Shown: piece after piece, positions 3,163 through 16,283 of the stretch
Layout of the letters: the number at the start of each line of letters is the position of its first letter
Numbering within the stretch: position 1 is the stretch's first letter
Assembly (NCBI GenBank): GCA_016839265.1
Contig: JAEOUO010000004.1
Span: 1-32,000 of the forward strand
Direction: 5' to 3'
DNA from: Candidatus Odinarchaeota archaeon
GTDB taxonomy: Archaea; Asgardarchaeota; Odinarchaeia; Odinarchaeales; Odinarchaeaceae
Length of the DNA: 32,000 bases
Notes under the pieces: model-generated
What the model was told of the DNA's origin: nothing
Databases searched by the model: none
Seen by the model: the letters and a program-made list of their open reading frames with translations, nothing else
Translations under genes and position numbers: made by a program

Positions 3163-3618
3163 ATGAGCCGGGTTAAAAAGACTAAGGTTCTTCTACCTAT
3201 CACTCTGAAAGTTAACAGAGAACTATTACTGAAAGGGTTTGAAATATTAAAAGGTTTAAAAAACCCTGATTTAACAGTTTTCCATGTATTAGAGCTTCCT
3301 GTAACTGCTTCTCTAGATATTTCAGAGCATGATAAAAAAATTAAAGAATTAAAACAGCAGTTAATCCCTACTATTAAATGGATTGAAGAGCAGACATTTA
3401 AAATAAATAGTAAAATTGTTGTAGCCCGTCACATCTCGGAAGCAATAGTGGAGGAAGCTAACAGCGGGGACTATGATCTTGTAATTTTATCGAAAAGAGC
3501 ACCTCCTAAAGGTTTAAAAAGAATATTTCATAGAAGCCACTCAGATTATGTTACCGGTAAAATCAACTGTCCAGCGCTTATTCTCGTAGATAAGAAACCA
3601 AAATCTTCAAGACTTTGA
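3163..3618 (+). CDS. Universal stress protein (USP)
   Basis: KVLLPI..., TVFHVLE, ISEAIVEEA..GDYDLVIL, SDYVTGKINCPALIL pattern. Confidence 0.85.
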   Translation: MSRVKKTKVLLPITLKVNRELLLKGFEILKGLKNPDLTVFHVLELPVTASLDISEHDKKIKELKQQLIPTIKWIEEQTFKINSKIVVARHISEAIVEEANSGDYDLVILSKRAPPKGLKRIFHRSHSDYVTGKINCPALILVDKKPKSSRL

Positions 3619-5004
3619 TAAACTTATGAAAGGCGCAGGTATACGTCCACCGCGTTGAATCAGTTTCGAAGATTTAAATCTGCTAACCGTCATTACAGGC
3701 GCAGCTCCGAGTAAACCCCCGTAGTCCACCCAATCCCCGGGTTTCTTACCGTAGACAGGTATAAGACGGGCGCCGACTGTTTTGCGGTTAATCACTCCAA
3801 GCGCGATTATATCACCTATTAGCGCAGCAATCGTCTCCGGGCTGGTATCCCATGGGAGGGGGATCATATCAAGACCTGTAGAGCATACACCGCTCATAGC
3901 TTTTAAATGATCTATTGTTAAAGCGCCTTCACTAACCGCTTTAGCGATAATATCATCTTCTAACACTGGTATGAAAACTCCGCTCTGTCCTCCTACATAT
4001 TTTGAAGCCATGCTTCCCCCTTTCTTCAACGCATCTGTGATAATGGCGATAGCTAAAACACTTCCAGGCGCTCCGAACCTTTCCAATCCTATACTCTCCA
4101 CTATGCCTCCTACACTGTTACCACCTTCAGGTGAAGGGGCTAGTGAAAGATCCACACCACCGAAGTCCACTTTCATCTCTTCTGCTATCCTTCTTCCGAT
4201 AAGCTCCCCAGCTCTGGTTACTTTAAAACTAGTTGACTTAATCGCTTCAACAACATCCCCAAGCGAAGCTTTATCCTCTAAATTATTTAAAACCGCGTGA
4301 ACAACACCAGGTCCGCTTATACCAACAGTTAACGAGACATCACTGTCCCCTATACTGTGAAACGCGCCTGGTAGAAACGGTGTTCCCTCAGCCGCGTTAG
4401 CCATCACCATAAGCTTCGCGCAGCCTACACTGTTTTCATTTTTCGTATTATAAGCGATATCTTTAATCACATACCCTATTCGCTTAACCATATCCATGTT
4501 TATACCGCTCTCGGTAGAAGCAACGTTTATAAACGAGAAAACTCTCTTCGTGGTGGATAACACTGTAGGTAAGCTTTCTATAAGTTTTTCATCCGCTTCA
4601 GATGCACCTCGGTGTACAAAACACGAGTAACCGCCGATGTAGTCCACCCCTGCGTCAACTACAGCTTTCTCAAGGGTTTCCGCGATTTTTAAACAGATTT
4701 TACTTTTATCAGAGTCGCTTTGATTCCTTAAAAGGCTTCCAAGAATTATTGAGATAGGTGTAACCGCGATACGCTTATTAACTATTGGAACCCCGTAAGA
4801 TCTCTGAACCTCTTTGCAGCTTTCATCAAATTGTTTAGAATAAGACATTATCTTATAATATATTTTATCACATGTCTCTTCAACGCTTCCCCCGATACAG
4901 TCTAGGAGGCTGATACCTAAAGTAGCTGCTCTAATATTCAGCTTCTGTAATGTAATCATTCTAATAGTTTCAATTATCTCCTCTGTATCTAGTAGCGCAG
5001 GCAT
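3607..5004 (-). CDS. DUF711/UPF0210 (PFL/RNR-like barrel) family protein
   Basis: ETIRMI..QKLNIRAATLGISLLDC, GVPIVNKRIAVTPI, GISGPGVV, DLSLAPSP, MSGVCSTGLDMI, GRIPAP; follows the ACT gene, as is usual for this family. Confidence 0.92.
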   Translation of the reverse strand: MPALLDTEEIIETIRMITLQKLNIRAATLGISLLDCIGGSVEETCDKIYYKIMSYSKQFDESCKEVQRSYGVPIVNKRIAVTPISIILGSLLRNQSDSDKSKICLKIAETLEKAVVDAGVDYIGGYSCFVHRGASEADEKLIESLPTVLSTTKRVFSFINVASTESGINMDMVKRIGYVIKDIAYNTKNENSVGCAKLMVMANAAEGTPFLPGAFHSIGDSDVSLTVGISGPGVVHAVLNNLEDKASLGDVVEAIKSTSFKVTRAGELIGRRIAEEMKVDFGGVDLSLAPSPEGGNSVGGIVESIGLERFGAPGSVLAIAIITDALKKGGSMASKYVGGQSGVFIPVLEDDIIAKAVSEGALTIDHLKAMSGVCSTGLDMIPLPWDTSPETIAALIGDIIALGVINRKTVGARLIPVYGKKPGDWVDYGGLLGAAPVMTVSRFKSSKLIQRGGRIPAPFISLSKS

Positions 5005-5018
5005 TTATTCTAAGCCCC

Positions 5019-5315
5019 CTAAACTCTATGAAGGAATTTAAAAATCTCCTCTTTAAGCGCGATTAATGTGACTCCTGTTTCCTCCTCCTTCTTTTTAAGA
5101 ATATTTTTAAGCTCATCATAGCTGATCTTCGCTTCACTCATATCAGCGATCATAATCATAGTGAATACAGGTGTCCCTGATTGAAGAATAGTTGAACGCA
5201 TATCCTCTATGTTAATATTATTCTCAGCTAGTATATTCGCCACCATCGCCACTATCCCAGGTCGGTCAACTCCGACAACAGTTATCACAATTTTCTTCTC
5301 ATCCATTAACCTCAC
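5019..5315 (-). CDS. ACT-domain protein (UPF0237 family)
   Basis: VITVVGVDRPGIVA ACT signature; C-terminal EEIFKFLHRV; conserved partner of DUF711. Confidence 0.9.
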   Translation of the reverse strand: MRLMDEKKIVITVVGVDRPGIVAMVANILAENNINIEDMRSTILQSGTPVFTMIMIADMSEAKISYDELKNILKKKEEETGVTLIALKEEIFKFLHRV

Positions 5316-5402: not shown

Positions 5403-6644
5403 ATGTCTTATATTAATCTAAACCTTCAAGTGGATCCTGAAAGATACGTTATAGCTGATTACACTCTTGAAAGCGATCTACCTTTAGAGATTGCAGCTGA
5501 GAAACTTGCAGCTGAGGAAAGCACTGGAACATGGACGGAGATCTCTACAACTAATACTAGAATAGTTGAGGAGCTTGGAGCTAAAGTCTTCTATATTGAT
5601 AAATCGAAAAATTTTGTTAGAGTAGCCTACCCGCTTGACGACTTCAGCTGGGATATAGGTGGAATTCCTCAATTTTTAAGCGTAGTAGCTGGTAACTTTT
5701 TCGGTTTAGAGCAGTTGAAAAACGCTAGACTACTCGATGTACACTTGCCGAATCAGGTTATAAAATTATTTAAGGGGCCGAAATTCGGTTTACACGGTGT
5801 TAAAAAACTCATGAACTGTGAGCATATGCCTTCTATAGGGGGTACAGTTAAACCGAAAATAGGGTTACCAGCTAGAAAATACGGTGAACTAGTGTATCTT
5901 TTCGGTTTAGGTGGTTTAACAGCAGGGAAAGATGATGAAACCCTTGTAAACCAGAAATTCTGCCCGCTTATAGACCGAGTTATAGCAGTCAGAGAAGCGA
6001 TAGATAAAGTTAAAGATGAAACAGGTCAAAGCATGCTTTACTCTGTAAACGTGACTACGAGAACAGATCAAATACTAGAAGTAGCTGATAAAGCTATCAG
6101 TCATGGGGCTAACCAGCTTTTAGTCGACTTGATAGTAGCAGGGTTCAGCGCGGTTCAAACATTAGCTGAAGACCCTAGTATAAATGTTCCCATCCACTGT
6201 CATAGAGCTATGCACGCTGCTTTCACGCGAAATCCTAAACACGGAATATCCATGAAAGTGGTTGGTAAAATATGCCGCCTAGTAGGCGGGGATATCTTAC
6301 ATGTGGGAACATGGGGTGTAGGTAAAATGCACGGTGAAGCTGATGAAACCCAGCTATACGCGGATGCAATAACACAGCTTATGGGCCACTTGAAACCTAT
6401 GCTGCCTATGGCTAGCGGTGGATTACACCCCGGCTCAGTTGAGCTTCTCGTTAAGAGAGCTGGAATAAATATTCAAATACAAGCAGGCGGCGGGATTGCA
6501 GGTCACCCTGATGGTGTACTAGCCGGAGCTAAAGCTTTACGTCAAGCTGTAGACGCAGTGGTGCAAGGGATCCAGGTTGAAGAATACGCGAAAACACATA
6601 GTGAGCTTAAAAAAGCTATAGAACACTGGGGTGTAGTTCGCTAA
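5403..6644 (+). CDS. rbcL: Form III (archaeal) RuBisCO large subunit
   Basis: All canonical catalytic residues are visible: AEESTGT, GN, KPK, KDDE (K176 at nt 5928), HCHRAMH, LHVGT..GK, SGG, GGG. The pathway partners are adjacent. Confidence 0.92.
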   Translation: MSYINLNLQVDPERYVIADYTLESDLPLEIAAEKLAAEESTGTWTEISTTNTRIVEELGAKVFYIDKSKNFVRVAYPLDDFSWDIGGIPQFLSVVAGNFFGLEQLKNARLLDVHLPNQVIKLFKGPKFGLHGVKKLMNCEHMPSIGGTVKPKIGLPARKYGELVYLFGLGGLTAGKDDETLVNQKFCPLIDRVIAVREAIDKVKDETGQSMLYSVNVTTRTDQILEVADKAISHGANQLLVDLIVAGFSAVQTLAEDPSINVPIHCHRAMHAAFTRNPKHGISMKVVGKICRLVGGDILHVGTWGVGKMHGEADETQLYADAITQLMGHLKPMLPMASGGLHPGSVELLVKRAGINIQIQAGGGIAGHPDGVLAGAKALRQAVDAVVQGIQVEEYAKTHSELKKAIEHWGVVR

Positions 6645-6674: not shown

Positions 6675-7652
6675 CTAAATTATTTCGTAGTCTTCTATAA
6701 TCTGGTTTTCAAAACTTTTTCTAAAACCGGTTTTACTATAGAAAACATCTTTATTCATTACTATAAGAGGGTGATCGAACATGTCACCGCAGAAATCTAA
6801 GTCATCAACCGGAGGTTTCACTAAAATTATCTTTCTATTAAATATTAACTGTTCAATTTTCTCAACCATATAGTTTTCCATTTCTTCGAATCCGCGCAGT
6901 AACATGTTTAAAGGTGTATCTAGAAATAAAGGTCTTAATTTCACAACTGTTCTAGACGCTTTCCGCCTTCTAAGATCATTTTTTTCAACCAATATCTTAA
7001 TATCTCCTTTACTATCCACAGGAGGTGCTATGAACGCCATCTCCCCGCTTCCACTATTAAAGTCTTCGCGTAAAACAAGCTTATCATACTCTCCTAAAAT
7101 ATTATCTAATTCTTTAAGCGATTTCAGAAAATCCTCTCTACTGCAAGTTTTCCTGTGAACCGAAAAAAACTCACCGCCGGTTTTAATAAGAGCTTGAACA
7201 TCTCCGTTTAACACCATATAACTCGCTTCGTTTAGATTTAAGGAGTTAACCTTATTTACAGTGAAGCCTGCGTTTAAAATACTTTCTAAATTTATTTCTC
7301 TATTAAACTTTAAAACCCAACTATCCCGTTTAAAATATGATTCCCTTAGAATATTTAACGGAGCGTAAACTTTACACTTCTCTTTTAAACCGATCTCTCT
7401 TAAAGCGAATACTCTATGAGTTCCATCCGCTATAACATAATCCGCTCCTAGCTCTGTGACAAGTATCGGATGAAGGAACCCTTCTGAACTGAAACTTTCA
7501 ATCAACCTGTCTATAACAGTTTTATCTGAAACAGTCTTTTCATGTTCAACAATATGGTTAATCTCCGATAAACCGAATTCAACTATAAAATCACCGTTTA
7601 AATTCGAGAATTTAACTTTCCAAGAGTGTTCACCGAAATTAAATGTTATCAT
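6675..7652 (-). CDS. ParB/Srx-fold protein of the SerK/SbnI free-serine-kinase type
   Basis: H37-E38, HPIL, D76-GTHR, W112 and K231-ASR-T correspond to SerK motifs as I recall them; strong AGGTGAGG SD before the ATG. Confidence 0.65.
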   Translation of the reverse strand: MITFNFGEHSWKVKFSNLNGDFIVEFGLSEINHIVEHEKTVSDKTVIDRLIESFSSEGFLHPILVTELGADYVIADGTHRVFALREIGLKEKCKVYAPLNILRESYFKRDSWVLKFNREINLESILNAGFTVNKVNSLNLNEASYMVLNGDVQALIKTGGEFFSVHRKTCSREDFLKSLKELDNILGEYDKLVLREDFNSGSGEMAFIAPPVDSKGDIKILVEKNDLRRRKASRTVVKLRPLFLDTPLNMLLRGFEEMENYMVEKIEQLIFNRKIILVKPPVDDLDFCGDMFDHPLIVMNKDVFYSKTGFRKSFENQIIEDYEII

Positions 7653-7872
7653 AACCTCACCTAGAATATCTTCTATAAATCTTAAATTTTACATATAAAA
7701 CATTAATTGTCTACTAGATTCAGCCTATTTCATAGAGGATTACAACTTAAACATAGTTAAATTTTATTCTTTAAAAATAAGAATTTTAAGAGATATAGTA
7801 AATTTCTGATTTAATAAATTGTTTAATATGTTTTTATATAACGCCTGTTTAATATTTTTCACAGTGATATTT

Positions 7873-8796
7873 ATGGAGATTGTTGAAAAAACAGCCGCTG
7901 ACATTAAAAACTTGAGGATTCAAGGAGCCACTAATATCGCGGTTAAAGCTTTAACAGCTATAACTGACCAGATTAAGAGTTTAAACCCTAAAACAATTCA
8001 AGAAGCGCTTTCGCAACTTCATAAAATGAAGGAAACACTGTTTCAAAGCAGGCCTACTGAGCCTACTATGAGAACCGGAGTTAAATATATACTCTATAAT
8101 TTACAGCGAAACCTCCCTGACCCTGTTAACATAAGTGACGTGATATCTTCTTTAGCCTCCCAGTATATTACACTTCTTAAAGAAGCTAAAGCTAGAATTC
8201 AGGTGATCGGCGCTAATAGAATAGTAGACGGAATGACTATAATGACACACTGTCACAGTTCTATTGTGAGCGGGATTATTATTAAAGCATTTCAGGATGG
8301 TAAAAAATTTGATGTAGTGTGTACGGAGACAAGACCTCTATATCAAGGGCATATAACTGCTAGAGAGCTAAGTGAGAAAGGGGTTAAAACCACGCTTATC
8401 GTTGATTCTGCGATGAGATGGGCTGTTCAACAGAAAGAAGTGGATTTAATTCTCGTCGGCGCTGACGCGATTACATCTGAAGGTGTTGTTTTAAATAAGA
8501 TAGGGACAAGATTACTCGCCTTAGCCGCTGAAGAATATAATGTCCCCTTTTACGTAGCCACTCCATCTTTTAAATTCTCACCTGAAACAGTTATAGGTAA
8601 CCTTGAGAAAATAGAGTTAAGGGATCCAGGAGAGGTTTGGGATTCGCCTCCTGAAAATCTTAGAATAGATAATCCTGCTTTCGAAACCGTGGCTAGAAAA
8701 TATATTCACGGAATAATCACAGAGCTGGGGATACTGCCTCCAGGATACCTTTACGGCGCGATTGTTGAGAAGTATCCTTTTATATTCTCGGATTAA
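7873..8796 (+). CDS. Ribose-1,5-bisphosphate isomerase (eIF-2B-like family)
   Basis: RIQGA, SRPTEP, THCHS (catalytic Cys), ETRP, GADAI (catalytic Asp), NKIGT. I prefer ATG 7873 with a GTGAT SD over the track start at 7819. Confidence 0.9.
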   Translation: MEIVEKTAADIKNLRIQGATNIAVKALTAITDQIKSLNPKTIQEALSQLHKMKETLFQSRPTEPTMRTGVKYILYNLQRNLPDPVNISDVISSLASQYITLLKEAKARIQVIGANRIVDGMTIMTHCHSSIVSGIIIKAFQDGKKFDVVCTETRPLYQGHITARELSEKGVKTTLIVDSAMRWAVQQKEVDLILVGADAITSEGVVLNKIGTRLLALAAEEYNVPFYVATPSFKFSPETVIGNLEKIELRDPGEVWDSPPENLRIDNPAFETVARKYIHGIITELGILPPGYLYGAIVEKYPFIFSD

Positions 8797-8818: not shown

Positions 8819-10339
8819 ATGGTTGAGTTAACGGTTAAACTAGTTGATGTAATATGTAACTATAATCAGGTTATATTAAACGATAAAGACGCTAAGAATA
8901 TGAAGGTTACCAGTCGCGATCGCGTTCAAGTTAAATCAATTAATAAATCTTTCACAGCGGTTTTACTGACAACTAAAAGTCTTTTACGTGAGGGAGAGAT
9001 CGGGTTAAACGAGACTCTTATGAGTAATCTTCAGGCTAAAGAAGGTGGAACGGTTGAAGTTACCCCAGCGAAAACACCTCTCTCCCTGTCATTTATTAAG
9101 AAAAAATTAAGCGGAGATTCTTTAAGCCATGCTGAAATGTCTCAGATCGTAGAGGATATTGTTTCTATGACTTTAACACCTGTTGAGATGGCCGCTTTCA
9201 TATTAGCTCAACACTACCAGGATCTGTCTATGGCTGAAGTTGAATATTTGACTAGAGCTATGGCGGAGACCGGTGTCACAATCGACTTCGAGGAGCCTGT
9301 CTACGATAAGCACTCCATTGGCGGTGTTCCGGGTAACAAAGTCTCTCTTCTAATTGTTCCTATAATCGCTTCTATGGGGCTTTTAATACCTAAAACGAGC
9401 AGTAGAGCTATAACCTCTCCTTCAGGAACCGCGGATACATTTGAAGTTTTAGCTCCCGTTAACTTTTCAGTTGAAGAGATTAAATCACTTGTTAAAAAAA
9501 CACGTGGCTGCCTTGTATGGGGGGGAACCCTTAACATTGCACCTGCAGATGATATTTTAATCGAAACCGTGGAGTATCCTTTGAGCATAGATCCGACAAG
9601 TCAGATGTTAGCTTCAATAATGTCTAAGAAATTAGCTATAGGAGTGGATTCTCTTGTATTAGATGTCCCTGTAGGTTTTAACGCTAAAGTTAAAACTAAA
9701 GAGGAGGCGGTTACGCTTTCAAGAAAATTTGTTGAATTAGGTGAAAGATTAAAGATAAGGGTTGAAGTCGGTTTAACATACGGTGATCAACCTGTAGGTC
9801 ACGCTGTCGGGCCGGCTTTAGAGGCGAAGGAGGCTCTTGAAGCTTTAATGGGTGTAGGTGCTTCCACCTCACTTGTAGAGAAATCTACAGCTTTAGCGGG
9901 TATATTATTAGAAATGGCTGGGCTTGCAAGCAGGGGAAGCGGCCAACAGCTCGCTTTAGAGTGTGTCAACAACGGTAAAGCTCTTAAAAAAATGATGGAG
10001 ATTATTGAAAACCAGGGCGGGGACCCTAATATTAAACTAGAAGATATTCCTTTAGGTGAGGAGTCTGAGAATATACTTGCTCCATTCTCCGGTTATATTG
10101 TCGAAGTGGATAATAAAGCTGTTAACGCAATCGCTAGAGCCGCAGGCGCTCCAGAACATAAAGGTGCAGGAGTATACTTATATAAGAAGAGAGGCGGCTA
10201 TGTGAAGAAGGGGGATCCGATTCTGAAAATCTACGCCGAGAAATCTTCTAAGCTCAGTGAAGCTATATCTGTAGCGAATAAATCTAACCCTGTAACTATT
10301 GAGGGGATGCTTCTTAAACATGTATCAGCGTTATACTAG
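8819..10339 (+). CDS. deoA: AMP (NMP) phosphorylase
   Basis: 506 aa with an N-terminal extension; DKHSIGGVPGNK, PKTSSRAITSPSGTAD, SIMSKK, GPALEA; directly after the R15P isomerase. Confidence 0.93.
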   Translation: MVELTVKLVDVICNYNQVILNDKDAKNMKVTSRDRVQVKSINKSFTAVLLTTKSLLREGEIGLNETLMSNLQAKEGGTVEVTPAKTPLSLSFIKKKLSGDSLSHAEMSQIVEDIVSMTLTPVEMAAFILAQHYQDLSMAEVEYLTRAMAETGVTIDFEEPVYDKHSIGGVPGNKVSLLIVPIIASMGLLIPKTSSRAITSPSGTADTFEVLAPVNFSVEEIKSLVKKTRGCLVWGGTLNIAPADDILIETVEYPLSIDPTSQMLASIMSKKLAIGVDSLVLDVPVGFNAKVKTKEEAVTLSRKFVELGERLKIRVEVGLTYGDQPVGHAVGPALEAKEALEALMGVGASTSLVEKSTALAGILLEMAGLASRGSGQQLALECVNNGKALKKMMEIIENQGGDPNIKLEDIPLGEESENILAPFSGYIVEVDNKAVNAIARAAGAPEHKGAGVYLYKKRGGYVKKGDPILKIYAEKSSKLSEAISVANKSNPVTIEGMLLKHVSALY

Positions 10340-12053: not shown

Positions 12054-13304
12054 TTGAAATTAATGGTTTACGAGCATGCTTCAGGCGGAGGCTACTGTGA
12101 TAGAAAGCTAACACCATCCCTTTTCAGTGAAGGATATGCGATGCTTAACGCGTCTGTTCAGGATTTTCAACGGATTGAAAGCAAAGTTTACACTACACTT
12201 GACTATCGAATCGCGAATTTCACTCCGCCTTTAAACGTTGAGGTGGTTACAATTCTACGGCCACCCCAGAAAATATTAAATGTATTCGATAAAGTCTGTA
12301 AGGAAATAGATCAAATAATGATTATCGCACCGGAGAACGCTGACACGCTTTATAATCTAACTAAAATAGCTGAGAGAAACCAGCTTATCGTTTTAGGCTC
12401 CACTTCTGAAGCTGTGAAGGTTTTATCTAATAAATGGAATGTTAAAAAAATAGCTGAAAACCTCGGCTTAAATGTTCCCCACCTTGAAAAAATATCTTTC
12501 AACGCTTCTCTTAAAGAAGTTAAAGAAATATTAGATAACATCGGTTACCCTGCTGTTTTAAGAAATCTTGACTCAGTCGGCGGTGAAGGTATAATCTCAG
12601 TCACTTCGAAAAGTGATTTAAACACGGCGATTACAACACTTAAATCAACTACAACCCACCATGAGTTTATAGCGCATAAATATATTAAAGGGATTCCAGC
12701 TAGTGTCAGCCTTTTATCTAACGGAGTGACTGCGATTCCTATAAGCTTAAACGCTCAAGCTGTTAACTTCGATCAGCAGACCGGTTTATTAGATTATCTC
12801 GGCGGCTACACTCCGCTTAAATATAAAGTATCTGTGCAAGTTAAGAAAACAGCTTTAAAATTAGTTGAGTACATGTCTGGTGTAAGAGGATACATTGGAG
12901 TCGACTTTGTAATAGATGAATCAGATCAACCGTTCATTCTTGAAGTTAACCCGCGTTTAACCACAAGCTACATAGCTATTCGACGTGTAACGGATATCAA
13001 CTTAATGGAGGCTATACGTAAAGCTGTCGTGGATGGTTCACTGCCTGAAAAAATAAATTTGGAAGGTTCAGCTTTCTTCTCTAAAGTTAGAATTAAAGTA
13101 ACCGGCGGGTTAACAGTAACTAAAATGCATCAACTAGCTCAAATCAGCGGAGTTATCACCCCCCCCTTCCCAACAGGTTTAAACTACTCTGAAGCTATGA
13201 TCGTAGCTGAAGGAGGTACTTTAAGAGAAGCTCAGAATGCTTTCCAATATATGAAAAAAAACTTAGAGTCACTGGGTGAAGTAGCATCTGAGGGTATTAC
13301 ATGA
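12054..13304 (+). CDS. mfnD: ATP-grasp tyramine--L-glutamate ligase (methanofuran biosynthesis)
   Basis: MKLMVYEHASGGG start, IIAPE, GGEG, YLGGYTP, GYIGVDF, EVNPRLTTSY; coupled to mfnF and mfnE. Confidence 0.8.
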   Translation: MKLMVYEHASGGGYCDRKLTPSLFSEGYAMLNASVQDFQRIESKVYTTLDYRIANFTPPLNVEVVTILRPPQKILNVFDKVCKEIDQIMIIAPENADTLYNLTKIAERNQLIVLGSTSEAVKVLSNKWNVKKIAENLGLNVPHLEKISFNASLKEVKEILDNIGYPAVLRNLDSVGGEGIISVTSKSDLNTAITTLKSTTTHHEFIAHKYIKGIPASVSLLSNGVTAIPISLNAQAVNFDQQTGLLDYLGGYTPLKYKVSVQVKKTALKLVEYMSGVRGYIGVDFVIDESDQPFILEVNPRLTTSYIAIRRVTDINLMEAIRKAVVDGSLPEKINLEGSAFFSKVRIKVTGGLTVTKMHQLAQISGVITPPFPTGLNYSEAMIVAEGGTLREAQNAFQYMKKNLESLGEVASEGIT

Positions 13305-14347
13305 CTGTTATCGCTGGCGTTGACGTGGGTGGAGCTAACACTAAAATCTCTATCATAAACTCTGATTATAAAACGCAAAGCGTAAGCTTTTATTTCCCTT
13401 TCTGGAAACGTAAGCTCACTGATTATCCTAAGATTTTCTTAAGTTATTTAAAAAAACTGTCACCTATAAATAGAATAGGTTTTTTCACTATTACGATGAC
13501 CGCTGAACTCTGCGATATATTTAAAACTAAACGTGAAGGGGTTTTAAAAATAATAGAGCTGTTCTCATCTATTCTACCGGTTGACAAACTCTTCTTCTAC
13601 ACTGTTGACGGTAACTATGTTAACGTTTCTAAAGCTGTGCAGAACCCTGTAAAATTAGCCGCCTCTAACTGGGTGGCTACAGGCGCCTTCTTTTCAGAGC
13701 TTCTCCCAGACAGTCTTATCATAGATATGGGCAGTACGACAACTGATTTAATAATAGTGAAAGATAGAGTAGTATACAGTAAAGGTTCTACTGATTTGAA
13801 AAGGCTTTTAAACGGTGAACTCTACTATACTGGGCTTCTTCGAACACCTTTATGCGCTTTAACCAATCGACTCTCCTTCAATAATAAGGAATACAGTTTA
13901 GCCGCTGAATTATTCGCGATCACAGCTGATGTTCATTTAATTTTAGGCAACATCAATCAAAACCAGTATACATGTGACACACCGGATAACGGTGAAAAAA
14001 CAATTGAAGCCTCCTATCGGAGGCTCAGCCGCATGTTATGTTCAGATGTAGAGGAACTTTCAAAACAGGATTTATTTAAAATCGCGAAGGTTTTTGAAAG
14101 AATTCAGTTTAACACGGTTAAGAGAGGCGTAAATAAATTATTAAACACTCATCTTCAGCTTCAAAATAAACCTGTTATCTTGACAGGGATCGGCCGCAAA
14201 TGGCTTTATAAAATGTTTAAAGCCAGCCGGTTAAATTTAAGCTTTAAACTATCAGATGAGTTAATTAAAAAAGATGTCAGCGACTTAACACCCGCTTACG
14301 CTATCGCATACCTGTTTAATAAAAAACTGAGGGATATTGTTGAGTGA
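13301..14347 (+). CDS. mfnF: Hydantoinase/oxoprolinase-family methanofuran core synthase
   Basis: DVGGANTK, YFPFWK, TMTAELCD, AASNWVAT, DMGSTTTD, ELYYTGLLRTP. Confidence 0.85.
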   Translation: MTVIAGVDVGGANTKISIINSDYKTQSVSFYFPFWKRKLTDYPKIFLSYLKKLSPINRIGFFTITMTAELCDIFKTKREGVLKIIELFSSILPVDKLFFYTVDGNYVNVSKAVQNPVKLAASNWVATGAFFSELLPDSLIIDMGSTTTDLIIVKDRVVYSKGSTDLKRLLNGELYYTGLLRTPLCALTNRLSFNNKEYSLAAELFAITADVHLILGNINQNQYTCDTPDNGEKTIEASYRRLSRMLCSDVEELSKQDLFKIAKVFERIQFNTVKRGVNKLLNTHLQLQNKPVILTGIGRKWLYKMFKASRLNLSFKLSDELIKKDVSDLTPAYAIAYLFNKKLRDIVE

Positions 14348-15014
14348 GTTAGACGCGGTTATTAAAATCGGCGGCGAGCTTATATTAGATGAGGAAACAT
14401 GCCGCTCACTGTTAAAAGAGCTTTATAAAAATATTCTTACAGGTAGAAGACTGCTAGTTATCAGCGGTGGCGGTGTGTTAAGCGATCATATACGTGAACT
14501 TTATCGTAAACGTGTTATATCAGATGAAGCTGCTCACTGGATGGCTGTTCTCTCCATGGATCAATCAGCTCACATACTAGCTGAAAAAGATTTAAATATT
14601 AAACTCGTCCGCAATCCTATTGAAGCTGAACAAGCAGCTGAGTCAAGGCATCTCCCGGTTATGTTAGTTTATAATTATCTTAGATTAAACGATAACCTGC
14701 CTCATAATTGGAGTGTAACCTCAGATTCTATTGCAGCCTATATTGCTTTCAAAACTAAGACTCGATTTCTAATACTGGTTAAAAACGTTGACGGGCTCTA
14801 CCCGACCCCTGAAATCAGGGAGGATAATCTTATACCTGCTATTAAAGCATCCTTTCTTAACCCGGATAAACATAAAATAGTAGACAGTTATCTACGTGAA
14901 ATCCTCTGTTTAAAACCGGATTATAAATGCTGGCTTATCAATGCTTACCACCCTGAGCGGTTAACAGAATTACTGAAAACCGGTGTAACCTTTGGAACTG
15001 AGATAATTATTTAA
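14337..15014 (+). CDS. mfnE: [5-(aminomethyl)furan-3-yl]methyl phosphate kinase (amino acid kinase family)
   Basis: IKIGG, GGG, AHWMAVLSMDQ, LPHNWSVTSDSIAA, KNVDG. Confidence 0.82.
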   Translation: MLSELDAVIKIGGELILDEETCRSLLKELYKNILTGRRLLVISGGGVLSDHIRELYRKRVISDEAAHWMAVLSMDQSAHILAEKDLNIKLVRNPIEAEQAAESRHLPVMLVYNYLRLNDNLPHNWSVTSDSIAAYIAFKTKTRFLILVKNVDGLYPTPEIREDNLIPAIKASFLNPDKHKIVDSYLREILCLKPDYKCWLINAYHPERLTELLKTGVTFGTEIII

Positions 15015-15054: not shown

Positions 15055-15564
15055 TTGAATAGACCTAGTAAGGATGAATACTATTTGAATATCGCTAAAG
15101 CTGTCTCAGCCCGCTCCACATGTCTTAGAAGAAAATTCGGAGCTGTAATAGTTAAAGATGATGTTATTGTAAGCACCGGATATAATGGTCCGGCTAGAGG
15201 AGTGGTTAACTGTCAGGAAGTCGGCTGTCTTAAAAACCAGCTTAACATACCCGCCTATACAGGTTACGATTATTGTATAGCAGTGCACGCGGAGGAGAAC
15301 TCTATTATAAACGCAGCGCGTCACGGCGCTGAAGTGAAAGGCGCTACATTATATTTATACGGGGAGACTGTTGAGGATAGTAAAATCACAGAGGCTGATC
15401 CGTGTAAAAGATGCAGGCGAGCTATAATCAATGCGGGTATTATTCGGGTGGTGACTAGGAAAAGCGAAACTGAAATAAAAGAGTTTAATGTTTCAGACTG
15501 GGTTAAAGAGGATACAGAATACTATTTAAACGAGTTTAAAAAAGCACTGAAAAAGAATTGTTAA
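15055..15564 (+). CDS. dCMP deaminase (CDA-fold, Zn-dependent)
   Basis: RSTCLRRKFGAVIV, TGYNG, HAEEN, PCKRC. Confidence 0.88.
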   Translation: MNRPSKDEYYLNIAKAVSARSTCLRRKFGAVIVKDDVIVSTGYNGPARGVVNCQEVGCLKNQLNIPAYTGYDYCIAVHAEENSIINAARHGAEVKGATLYLYGETVEDSKITEADPCKRCRRAIINAGIIRVVTRKSETEIKEFNVSDWVKEDTEYYLNEFKKALKKNC

Positions 15565-16283
15565 TCTAGCATTCTCTTCAAAACTCTTATTCTATCCGCG
15601 CTCACCTTACCGTTAACTCTATCACCGTTCTCACAGACCAAGCTGCGTACACCTAGAATATCGCAGCCTATTTTTTTAACAGTACGCAGATGCGCTAATC
15701 TCACTCCACCTGCAAGCGCTGTTTGAAAACCTTTACTTTTACACTTCTCAGTGAATTCTTCAAGCTCTTCAACACTCATAAAGTCGAAGGTGCTTTTCCC
15801 ATTTTTAATAAAAGTATCTATCATCAATACGCTTACATCTAAGTCTTCAACTAAATCCGGTAAACGCATCGGATTCACGGATCCTATTCTACTCCAATCA
15901 GAGTAACCGGCTGTAACTATTCTACCAGGAAACCCGAATTCTTTTTTAACTTTACACAACATTTTAAGAAACTCTCTAATCGCCTGCTCTGAAACAGGTT
16001 TATATAAGCCGATTTTCGCGTAATCCACACCAAGACTTAAAACACCTAGCAACGCCTGAGTGATTAATCCAGGTTTATCTAAACTATCACACACAGCCGC
16101 GCTGACCTCCATACTAGGAGGCGTTAGCTTCTTCACTTCTCTAATAATCCATGGATATTGACCGCCTAAAGAACCCTCCAACGGGTTTTTAACATCTATA
16201 ATATCAACACCGCTTTCAATAACTGTTTCAGCTTCTTCAACGTTTTTAGGGCTTACTAAAAGCTTCGTGAAGCACCCCTCCAT
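15561..16283 (-). CDS. mfnB: (5-formylfuran-3-yl)methyl phosphate synthase
   Basis: LLVSP..VEEA, DIIDVKNP.EGSLG, DYAKIGL, MIDT..K.G, LAGG, GVRS. Confidence 0.9.
   Translation of the reverse strand: MEGCFTKLLVSPKNVEEAETVIESGVDIIDVKNPLEGSLGGQYPWIIREVKKLTPPSMEVSAAVCDSLDKPGLITQALLGVLSLGVDYAKIGLYKPVSEQAIREFLKMLCKVKKEFGFPGRIVTAGYSDWSRIGSVNPMRLPDLVEDLDVSVLMIDTFIKNGKSTFDFMSVEELEEFTEKCKSKGFQTALAGGVRLAHLRTVKKIGCDILGVRSLVCENGDRVNGKVSADRIRVLKRMLD

Follow-up and report, generated by a model that had tools for sequence, protein, structure and literature searches.

A putative ParB-fold kinase of an Asgard-only clade next to the RuBisCO pathway genes of an Odinarchaeon

The locus between rbcL and the R15P isomerase gene

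The stretch of DNA analysed here, which we call the window, comprises the first 32,000 nucleotides (forward strand) of contig JAEOUO010000004.1 of a Candidatus Odinarchaeota archaeon (GenBank assembly GCA_016839265.1). Our subject is a gene on its minus strand, hereafter the ParB-fold gene, which lies among the genes of the pentose-bisphosphate pathway that ends in RuBisCO and encodes a putative relative of the free-serine kinases SerK and SbnI. The genome of the Odinarchaeon measures 1.35 Mb and is 97% complete, the closest homologues are annotated as Ca. Odinarchaeum yellowstonii or Odinarchaeia, and near-identical DNA occurs in oil-field and hydrocarbon metagenomes. The central part of the locus reads as follows:

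5403..6644, plus strand: type III RuBisCO large subunit gene (rbcL; TIGR03326, E 2.3e-119), convergent with the ParB-fold gene
6675..7652, minus strand: SerK/SbnI-fold gene of the clade called group A below; 325 amino acids (aa), uninterrupted open reading frame with an ATG start
7653..7872, no strand: divergent intergenic region between the ParB-fold gene and e2b2, with a TATA-like box, the e2b2 start and the GGTGAGG of the ParB-fold gene
7873..8796, plus strand: ribose-1,5-bisphosphate (R15P) isomerase gene (e2b2; TIGR00511, E 2.9e-80), divergent from the ParB-fold gene
8819..10339, plus strand: AMP phosphorylase gene (deoA; TIGR03327, E 6.2e-207, exceeding the cut-off), co-directional with e2b2

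An earlier note on this DNA had placed the reading frame between rbcL and the isomerase gene, divergent from an isomerase-deoA operon, and the three family models confirm these flanks. A T-rich spacer of 30 nt, with T-runs, separates rbcL from the ParB-fold gene, whose ATG is preceded at 5 nt by a Shine-Dalgarno-like GGTGAGG that is kept in related genomes. The longest reading frame of e2b2 opens at TTG 7819, although its start is most likely ATG 7873, since this is where homology and conservation among four genomes set in, and about 30 nt before it there is a conserved TATA-like box.

Other genes of the window adjoin this core. Just upstream of rbcL, and divergent from it, lie two co-directional genes for a DUF711 protein (3607-5004) and an ACT-domain protein (5019-5315), and a small endonuclease gene related to the archaeal Holliday junction resolvase (PF10107; 10366-10737) lies directly 3′ of deoA on the same strand. 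Further on, between 12054 and 16283, there is a cluster resembling those for the biosynthesis of methanofuran or tetrahydromethanopterin (H4MPT)-type cofactors:

12054-13304: ATP-grasp_3 ligase
13301-14347: Hydantoinase_A-like protein
14337-15014: MfnE-like kinase (NF040622, 109 bits, under the cut-off)
15055-15564: ComEB/dCMP-deaminase-like gene, between the MfnE-like and MfnB-like genes
15561-16283: MfnB-like (5-formylfuran-3-yl)methyl phosphate synthase (255 bits, under the cut-off)

Fold, catalytic core and acceptor side of the protein

Positions 14-243 of the 244 in the SerK model NF053625 aligned to residues 24-251 of the protein (E 6.4e-10), although the score of 38.6 bits misses the cut-off of 380 bits. 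The fold was modelled with AlphaFold2 from a 26-sequence alignment, with a mean predicted local distance difference (pLDDT) of 93.3 and a predicted template-modelling score (pTM) of 0.88. When this model was searched with Foldseek, the nine best matches were all SerK or SbnI (E 1e-11 to 1e-13, 243-267 columns), among them 5x0k at 8.5e-13, and 5x0k, 5x0g and 5x0b all at E about 1e-12. Comparison with representative structures in VIA-align gave SbnI a Z of 18.7 (237 residues, model 2-287) and SerK a Z of 15.3 (207 residues, model 24-252), sulfiredoxin coming next at Z 6.9 with the N-domain only. A phmmer search of the PDB recovered PF0380 (1vk1) and Tk-SerK (5x0b and related entries) along their full length; its matches to SbnI and ParB were confined to the N-domain. 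As modelled, the protein has the two-domain ParB-fold of SerK and SbnI, and the structure search against SerK, SbnI and ParB_N that the earlier note had proposed favours this fold over a ParB DNA-clamp or a nuclease. A Pfam scan at E<=10 gave no match to a SerK C-domain, which bears neither way, the nearer SerK relatives of group C (see below) giving none either. The protein can be divided into four parts:

Residues 1-24: N-terminal beta-hairpin
Residues 25-105: ParB/Srx-like nucleotide domain
Residues 106-251: SerK-type C-domain
Residues 252-325: clade-specific tail
6678..6896, minus strand: codons for residues 253-325 of the C-terminal tail, with a helix at 255-271 and a conserved D293-H294 segment

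The tail, put at some 70 aa in the earlier note, measures about 74 aa when counted from the end of the NF053625 alignment at residue 251, and up to residue ~287 it superposes on the C-terminus of SbnI.

A fold of this kind raises the question of whether the protein could instead have no part in metabolism and be a DNA-binding partition protein of the ParB type, or a ParB-like nuclease. ParB_N (PF02195) does match weakly, at E 0.01 and 16.3 bits against a gathering score of 26.3, as does TIGR00180 (22.3 bits against 58.45), and scans for defence and phage proteins yield just weak ParB-type matches, phage ParB-like ones included, to the N-domain (residues ~30-105). Furthermore, the SerK orthologue of P. 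furiosus was once reported as a nuclease, in a study cited in PMC5120207. However, ParB, Noc, KorB and sulfiredoxin cover only ~83 N-domain residues in Foldseek (E 1e-3 or weaker) and ParB-type structures reach a Z of 5 or less in VIA-align, whereas SerK and SbnI match both domains. Neither a helix-turn-helix (HTH), nor a dimerisation domain, nor any other DNA-binding domain was found among the family matches, no defence family was matched, and the protein is acidic (isoelectric point 5.5, net charge about -8). The position of the ParB arginine patch, GERRxRA, reads DGTHR, as it does in SerK and Srx. For these reasons, we regard a partition protein or nuclease as very improbable.

The correspondence of single residues was taken from the phmmer alignment to PDB 5x0b, and the roles of the SerK acceptor residues likewise rest on alignment. 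Three groups of codons carry the comparison:

7539..7544, minus strand: H37-E38, equal to SerK H29-E30; invariant in 144 relatives
7413..7427, minus strand: D76-G-T-H-R80, equal to SerK D69-G-H-H-R73, on the phosphate/metal side of the ParB/Srx fold
6948..6971, minus strand: R228-R-R-K-A-S-R-T235, the remodelled acceptor-side motif; the SerK equivalent is Y-S-P-K-T-T-R-H

SerK E30 is the residue mutated in the deposited PDB entries E30A and E30Q. Besides these motifs, W112 corresponds to SerK W102, K231 to K221 and R234 to R224. Among the 144 two-domain relatives, H37, E38, P62, D76, G77, H79, R80 and W112 are invariant and K231 and R240 nearly so, position 78 of the D-G-x-H-R motif being H, T, M or N. 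All of the residues listed in the earlier note (H37-E38, D76-G-T-H-R80, W112 and K231-A-S-R-T235) are present in the translation, and the full-length match to SerK that it described holds, except that the SerK tryptophan it gave as W101 is W102 in the 5x0b alignment. It was also right that threonine replaces the substrate-side histidine of SerK, since T235 aligns with H225 of KTTRH.

This last replacement is part of a wider difference. Among 1.84 billion representative proteins, a search with a profile built from eight orthologues gave 15 clusters with E<=1e-30 (325-374 aa); the number rises to 28 with E<=1e-10 and to 287 with E<=1e-3. Where the top clusters have named members, these come from Odinarchaeia, Ranarchaeia and Hodarchaeales. 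The relatives in Asgard archaea fall into three groups. Group A, which includes the ParB-fold gene and amounts to about 15 clusters at 50% identity, has proteins of 325-374 aa with ADGTHR, LRRxK[GA]S[RK]T, a long tail and 21-39 bits to NF053625 (38.6, 25 and 21 bits in single members). Group B proteins (e.g., P0010-P0012) measure ~286 aa and show DG[TMN]HR, K[ATS]TRH, a short tail and 97.9 bits, and those of group C, of ~240 aa, show DGHHR, KTTRH and 140.9 bits. Scans of metagenomes and genome contigs with the group A profile added two fragments to the genomes already known, and nothing else.

Group A comes out as monophyletic in a FastTree phylogeny (support 1.0), and its stem measures 1.16 substitutions per site. 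The motif K[GA]S[RK]T occurs in 28 sequences, versus more than 90 with KxTRH. Nine residues (W11, A75, R109, R172, D213, R228, R229, S233 and T235) are present in 90-100% of group A and in at most 4% of the sequences elsewhere, position 235 is threonine in 97% of group A and histidine in 91% of the other relatives, and K215, kept in 91% of the latter, is gone from the clade. On this sequence evidence, the protein is not a SerK orthologue but a member of a distinct, Asgard-only clade. The catalytic and nucleotide side is frozen and the loop region of the C-domain is rebuilt with four extra arginines, and our reading is therefore that the acceptor has changed, probably in favour of a more anionic compound, for instance a phosphorylated sugar or a nucleotide-derived metabolite. 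The earlier note had offered a kinase with a new substrate, such as a pentose, a pentose phosphate or glycerate, as one of its alternatives, and the general idea gains support from the clade-wide remodelling of the acceptor motif and its surroundings.

The strong rival to a changed acceptor is a genuine but divergent free L-serine kinase, making O-phosphoserine for SepRS-dependent Cys-tRNA formation. The O-phosphoserine would also lead, via phosphoserine aminotransferase and phosphoglycerate dehydrogenase, to 3-phosphoglycerate (3-PGA), the product of RuBisCO, as proposed for Thermococcus kodakarensis. Consistent with such an enzyme, no catalytic residue has been lost, and K231, S233 and R234 resemble K221, T223 and R224 of SerK. 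On the other hand, the protein reaches a tenth of the score that NF053625 demands, and the change of the KTTRH histidine, the loss of Lys215 and the gain of four arginines all touch the acceptor side.

Genomic contexts and metabolic background

The neighbours of the ParB-fold gene were compared in the Asgard genomes. In all four genomes of its own genus (g1), the gene is flanked by rbcL and e2b2-deoA; collinearity extends there over the entire 14 kb, with 64-93% protein identity, so these four genomes are not independent observations. Within g1, the ParB-fold gene shows 64-78% identity against 81-93% for its pathway neighbours, and its G+C content is 33.8%, compared with 40-43% for rbcL, e2b2 and deoA; we count both differences in favour of an accessory status.

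Only one genome of the sister family f2, G298, has a group A orthologue (35% identity). It stands head-to-head with thyX and adjoins hflX (L034:8678-10510), with rbcL and e2b2-deoA on two further contigs, so that the three loci occupy three different contigs. A related metagenome fragment repeats the pair of orthologue and thyX. Two other sister genomes, G299 and G300, have RuBisCO, e2b2 and deoA and gave no match to the ParB-fold gene, and in G299 the 490 nt 5′ of thyX encode nothing similar to it. The e2b2-deoA pair itself is kept in family f2, with an SDR gene upstream and the same ATP-grasp gene downstream, on a contig other than that of rbcL. There (L082:2709-8961 in G299, L081 in G298) a co-directional run comprises an ECF-transporter S component, a Double-GTPase-1-like gene, SDR, e2b2, deoA and ATP-grasp_3, the latter being the gene found 1.7 kb downstream of deoA in the window.

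The linkage to RuBisCO is a genus-level arrangement of an accessory gene and not a conserved association: when lineages were compared for a conserved co-occurrence of the gene with rbcL, e2b2 and deoA, or for their linkage, linkage was seen only in g1. The earlier note had considered the protein an extra enzyme of the nucleoside-RuBisCO pathway and had suggested following its synteny with rbcL and deoA across archaea. That synteny, checked in Asgard genomes, is limited to one collinear genus, and an integral place in the pathway does not survive this result together with the thyX context of G298 and the lack of a match in G299 and G300. Its remark that the linkage was undescribed holds: in our literature search, papers on the Asgard and Odinarchaeota pentose-bisphosphate pathway included, we found no description of the group A clade or of its linkage to RuBisCO.

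A neighbourhood with thyX recurs in a second lineage. In genus g21, a group C SerK-like gene (~240 aa, DGHHR, KTTRH, 141 bits) immediately precedes thyX, on the same strand:

L049:8394-9754 (genome G070), and also L050 and L024: group C gene and thyX, genus g21

The recurrence, with group A in G298 and group C in g21, is suggestive of a theme of nucleotide metabolism, and it is only marginally beyond chance, with a probability of about 0.05-0.1 in a rough post-hoc estimate for any family over ~18 neighbour slots. No thyX was found in the Odin genus. Group B genes share neighbours within single genera only, as seen in an analysis of conserved neighbours.

Being head-to-head with e2b2-deoA in the window and with thyX in G298, the gene has the usual layout of a local regulator, which brings in the possibility of a mainly regulatory or nucleotide-sensing protein, an SbnI-like or ParB-CTPase-fold NTP switch that would control the divergent e2b2-deoA operon. 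SbnI, the best structural match (which extends to the N-terminal strands and a portion of the tail), is labelled in NCBIfam as a bifunctional transcriptional regulator/O-phospho-L-serine synthase. However, the acidic character of the protein and its lack of a recognised DNA-binding domain speak against such a role. No conserved palindromic operator was seen in the region between the ParB-fold gene and e2b2 when four genomes were compared, and among them the length of this region varies from about 60 to more than 300 nt. Finally, the catalytic base and the phosphate-binding residues are invariant across the clade, which indicates chemistry and not only binding. We consider a regulator improbable.

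The metabolic background of the genome includes two aminoacyl-tRNA synthetases:

G000 contig C1 729477-731021 and contig C3 7227-8609: SepRS and CysRS

SepRS scores 520.7 bits, above its cut-off, and CysRS 480 bits; the CysRS model used did not find the enzyme in two further g1 genomes (93% complete). The ParB-fold gene is the sole SerK-like gene in this 97%-complete genome, and a short PGDH-like dehydrogenase, an AGXT-like class V aminotransferase and SerB are encoded with SepRS, all of which fits a kinase that makes phosphoserine. Its wider route has been discussed before: a path from serine through phosphoserine to 3-PGA that involves SerK was proposed in PMC5120207, where SerK homologues are also described in operons with serA-like genes in Desulfurococcales, and the same path is drawn in PMC11032457 as the downstream part of the salvage of 2-phosphoglycolate that stems from archaeal RuBisCO. 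Against it, the genome is apparently able to make phosphoserine from 3-PGA without a kinase, and in a set of 400 Asgard genomes the occurrence of SepRS does not follow that of SerK-like genes. Families f11, f14, f26 and f27 have a SerK-like gene without SepRS, and f15-f19 and most of f22 have SepRS without a SerK-like gene; in the absence of a consistent association, co-occurrence with SepRS was discarded as support. Considering both sides, we find a divergent serine kinase rather unlikely, even if it is the closest competitor of a changed acceptor.

As for other small-molecule kinases, the genome encodes two PfkB kinases, one of which scores 125 and 115 bits to both ribose-1-phosphate kinase models, below their cut-offs, as well as a thymidylate kinase (Tmk). 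A MOFRL glycerate kinase adjoins a glyoxylate/hydroxypyruvate reductase (NF009714, 458 bits; G000 contig C1 828935-830941), likely as the gene pair of a non-phosphorylated serine/glycerate route. No ADP-dependent sugar kinase was found in the genus, which says nothing either way on ADP dependence or on the feeding of AMP to AMP phosphorylase that the earlier note had suggested. An argument from gap-filling was tried and rejected as a guide to the substrate: PfkB, glycerate kinase, thymidylate kinase and SerB are all encoded, no candidate reaction is conspicuously orphaned, and the argument therefore does not pick one.

A putative kinase with a changed acceptor and its known relatives

The reading that we prefer, with a probability of roughly 0.4, is that the protein would be an active small-molecule kinase whose acceptor has changed, in a new SerK/SbnI subfamily specific to Asgard archaea, and that its gene would be accessory to those of the pentose-bisphosphate pathway. 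By homology to SerK, the N-domain would bind a nucleoside di- or triphosphate (NDP or NTP) as phosphate donor through D76 and H79-R80, E38 would act as the general base on the acceptor hydroxyl, and the C-domain loop around K231-R234 would close over the acceptor. The acceptor side would have been rebuilt by the change of KTTRH to K[GA]S[RK]T, with the loss of the histidine and Lys215, the gain of four arginines and D213, and the addition of the 74-aa tail. The gene would have come to adjoin the pentose-bisphosphate genes in the genus Odinarchaeum as an accessory, not as a core member of the pathway. The catalytic activity, the nature of the acceptor and the metabolic tie to RuBisCO are parts of this reading that we infer.

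Several points weigh against it. The catalytic activity of every group A member is a prediction, and the placement of R109, R172, R228 and R229 at the acceptor site rests on alignment and not on coordinates. S233 and R234 are conservative with respect to SerK T223 and R224, so that serine could still bind. The genome shows no visible gap among the candidate reactions, given its PfkB kinases, MOFRL glycerate kinase, Tmk and SerB, and the genomic contexts of group A that were examined amount to two independent ones.

A narrower version, in which group A would be a new kind of ParB/Srx-fold kinase acting on a phosphorylated pentose or a (deoxy)nucleotide-derived metabolite, seems to us improbable, although slightly less so than the regulator. 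The reaction may then be that of ribose-1-phosphate to R15P, that of ribulose-5-phosphate to ribulose-1,5-bisphosphate (RuBP), or the phosphorylation of a pyrimidine (deoxy)nucleoside or (deoxy)nucleoside monophosphate. Were this true, Odinarchaeum would enter the RuBisCO pathway by way of a kinase that is neither PfkB nor PRK, and the position of the orthologue beside thyX in the sister lineage would be explained.

To our knowledge, the free-serine kinases with a ParB/Srx fold are a small and recently recognised family, whose characterised types are the ADP-dependent Tk-SerK, the NTP-dependent SerK of Desulfurococcales, and SbnI. An Asgard-only clade that keeps the phosphotransfer machinery and has its acceptor site rebuilt could widen the chemistry of this fold, and it makes a cheap biochemical target. 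An acceptor of the pentose phosphate or nucleotide-derived kind would give the archaeal nucleotide-salvage pathway of RuBisCO a new entry step, and if the protein were a plain serine kinase, the link between serine, phosphoserine and 3-PGA would extend to SepRS-dependent Asgard archaea. Under either reading, the gene is optional and rare, and therefore of limited importance for Asgard physiology in general.

Among known systems, the Desulfurococcales SerK enzymes reportedly use NTPs, a result attributed to Mori et al. in 2021. One of the closest is Tk-SerK (TK0378) of Thermococcus kodakarensis, an ADP-dependent free L-serine kinase (PMC5120207), with 5x0b, 5x0e, 5x0g, 5x0j and 5x0k, plus PF0380 (1vk1), as reference structures of SerK. 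Like Tk-SerK, the ParB-fold protein has two domains (25% identity over the 207 residues aligned in VIA-align), is co-linear over SerK 14-243 and keeps H-E, D-G-x-H-R, W, K and R; unlike it, it has T78 for H71, K-A-S-R-T for K-T-T-R-H and R228-R229 for Y218-S219, as well as an extra N-terminal hairpin of 24 aa and the 74-aa tail. In terms of the NF053625 family, the fold, the co-linearity and the E30/D-G-H-H-R motif (its first His being Thr) are found, and the 380-bit cut-off and the K-T-T-R-H of K221-H225 (5x0b numbering) are not.

SbnI of Staphylococcus aureus and S. pseudintermedius (PDB 5ujd, 5uje and 6nr6), which phosphorylates serine with ATP and regulates staphyloferrin B genes, is the best structural match and has counterparts of the N-terminal strands and of the first helix of the tail. 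However, identity is 16-18%, the gene lies beside rbcL, e2b2 and deoA and not in a siderophore (sbn) cluster, and the protein is acidic, with no evidence of DNA binding found in our analysis. The SbnI model NF033589 covers residues 28-119 only, at 21.7 bits against a cut-off of 350. Sulfiredoxin differs further, since T78 occupies the place of the catalytic Cys of its G-G-C-H-R and the ParB-fold protein has a second domain, in contrast to the one ParB/Srx domain, of about 100 aa, of sulfiredoxin.

Closer at hand, the Asgard proteins of groups B and C share superfamily and phylum with group A, and group B has the first part of the C-terminal extension; unlike group A, both keep the SerK-type KxTRH and Lys215, score 98-141 bits to the SerK model and fall outside the clade. 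An archaeal SerK-like ParB-fold protein was found to bind CTP and not ATP (PMC12704722), and its published Box I helix motif resembles that of group B, which we take as a lead only. Lastly, the role suggested by the locus is of the kind played by the PfkB ribose-1-phosphate kinases, the ADP-dependent ones of Thermococcales (NF041134) and the ATP-dependent ones of Haloarchaea (NF053626), which feed R15P isomerase and RuBisCO and whose fold is unrelated to that of the ParB-fold protein.

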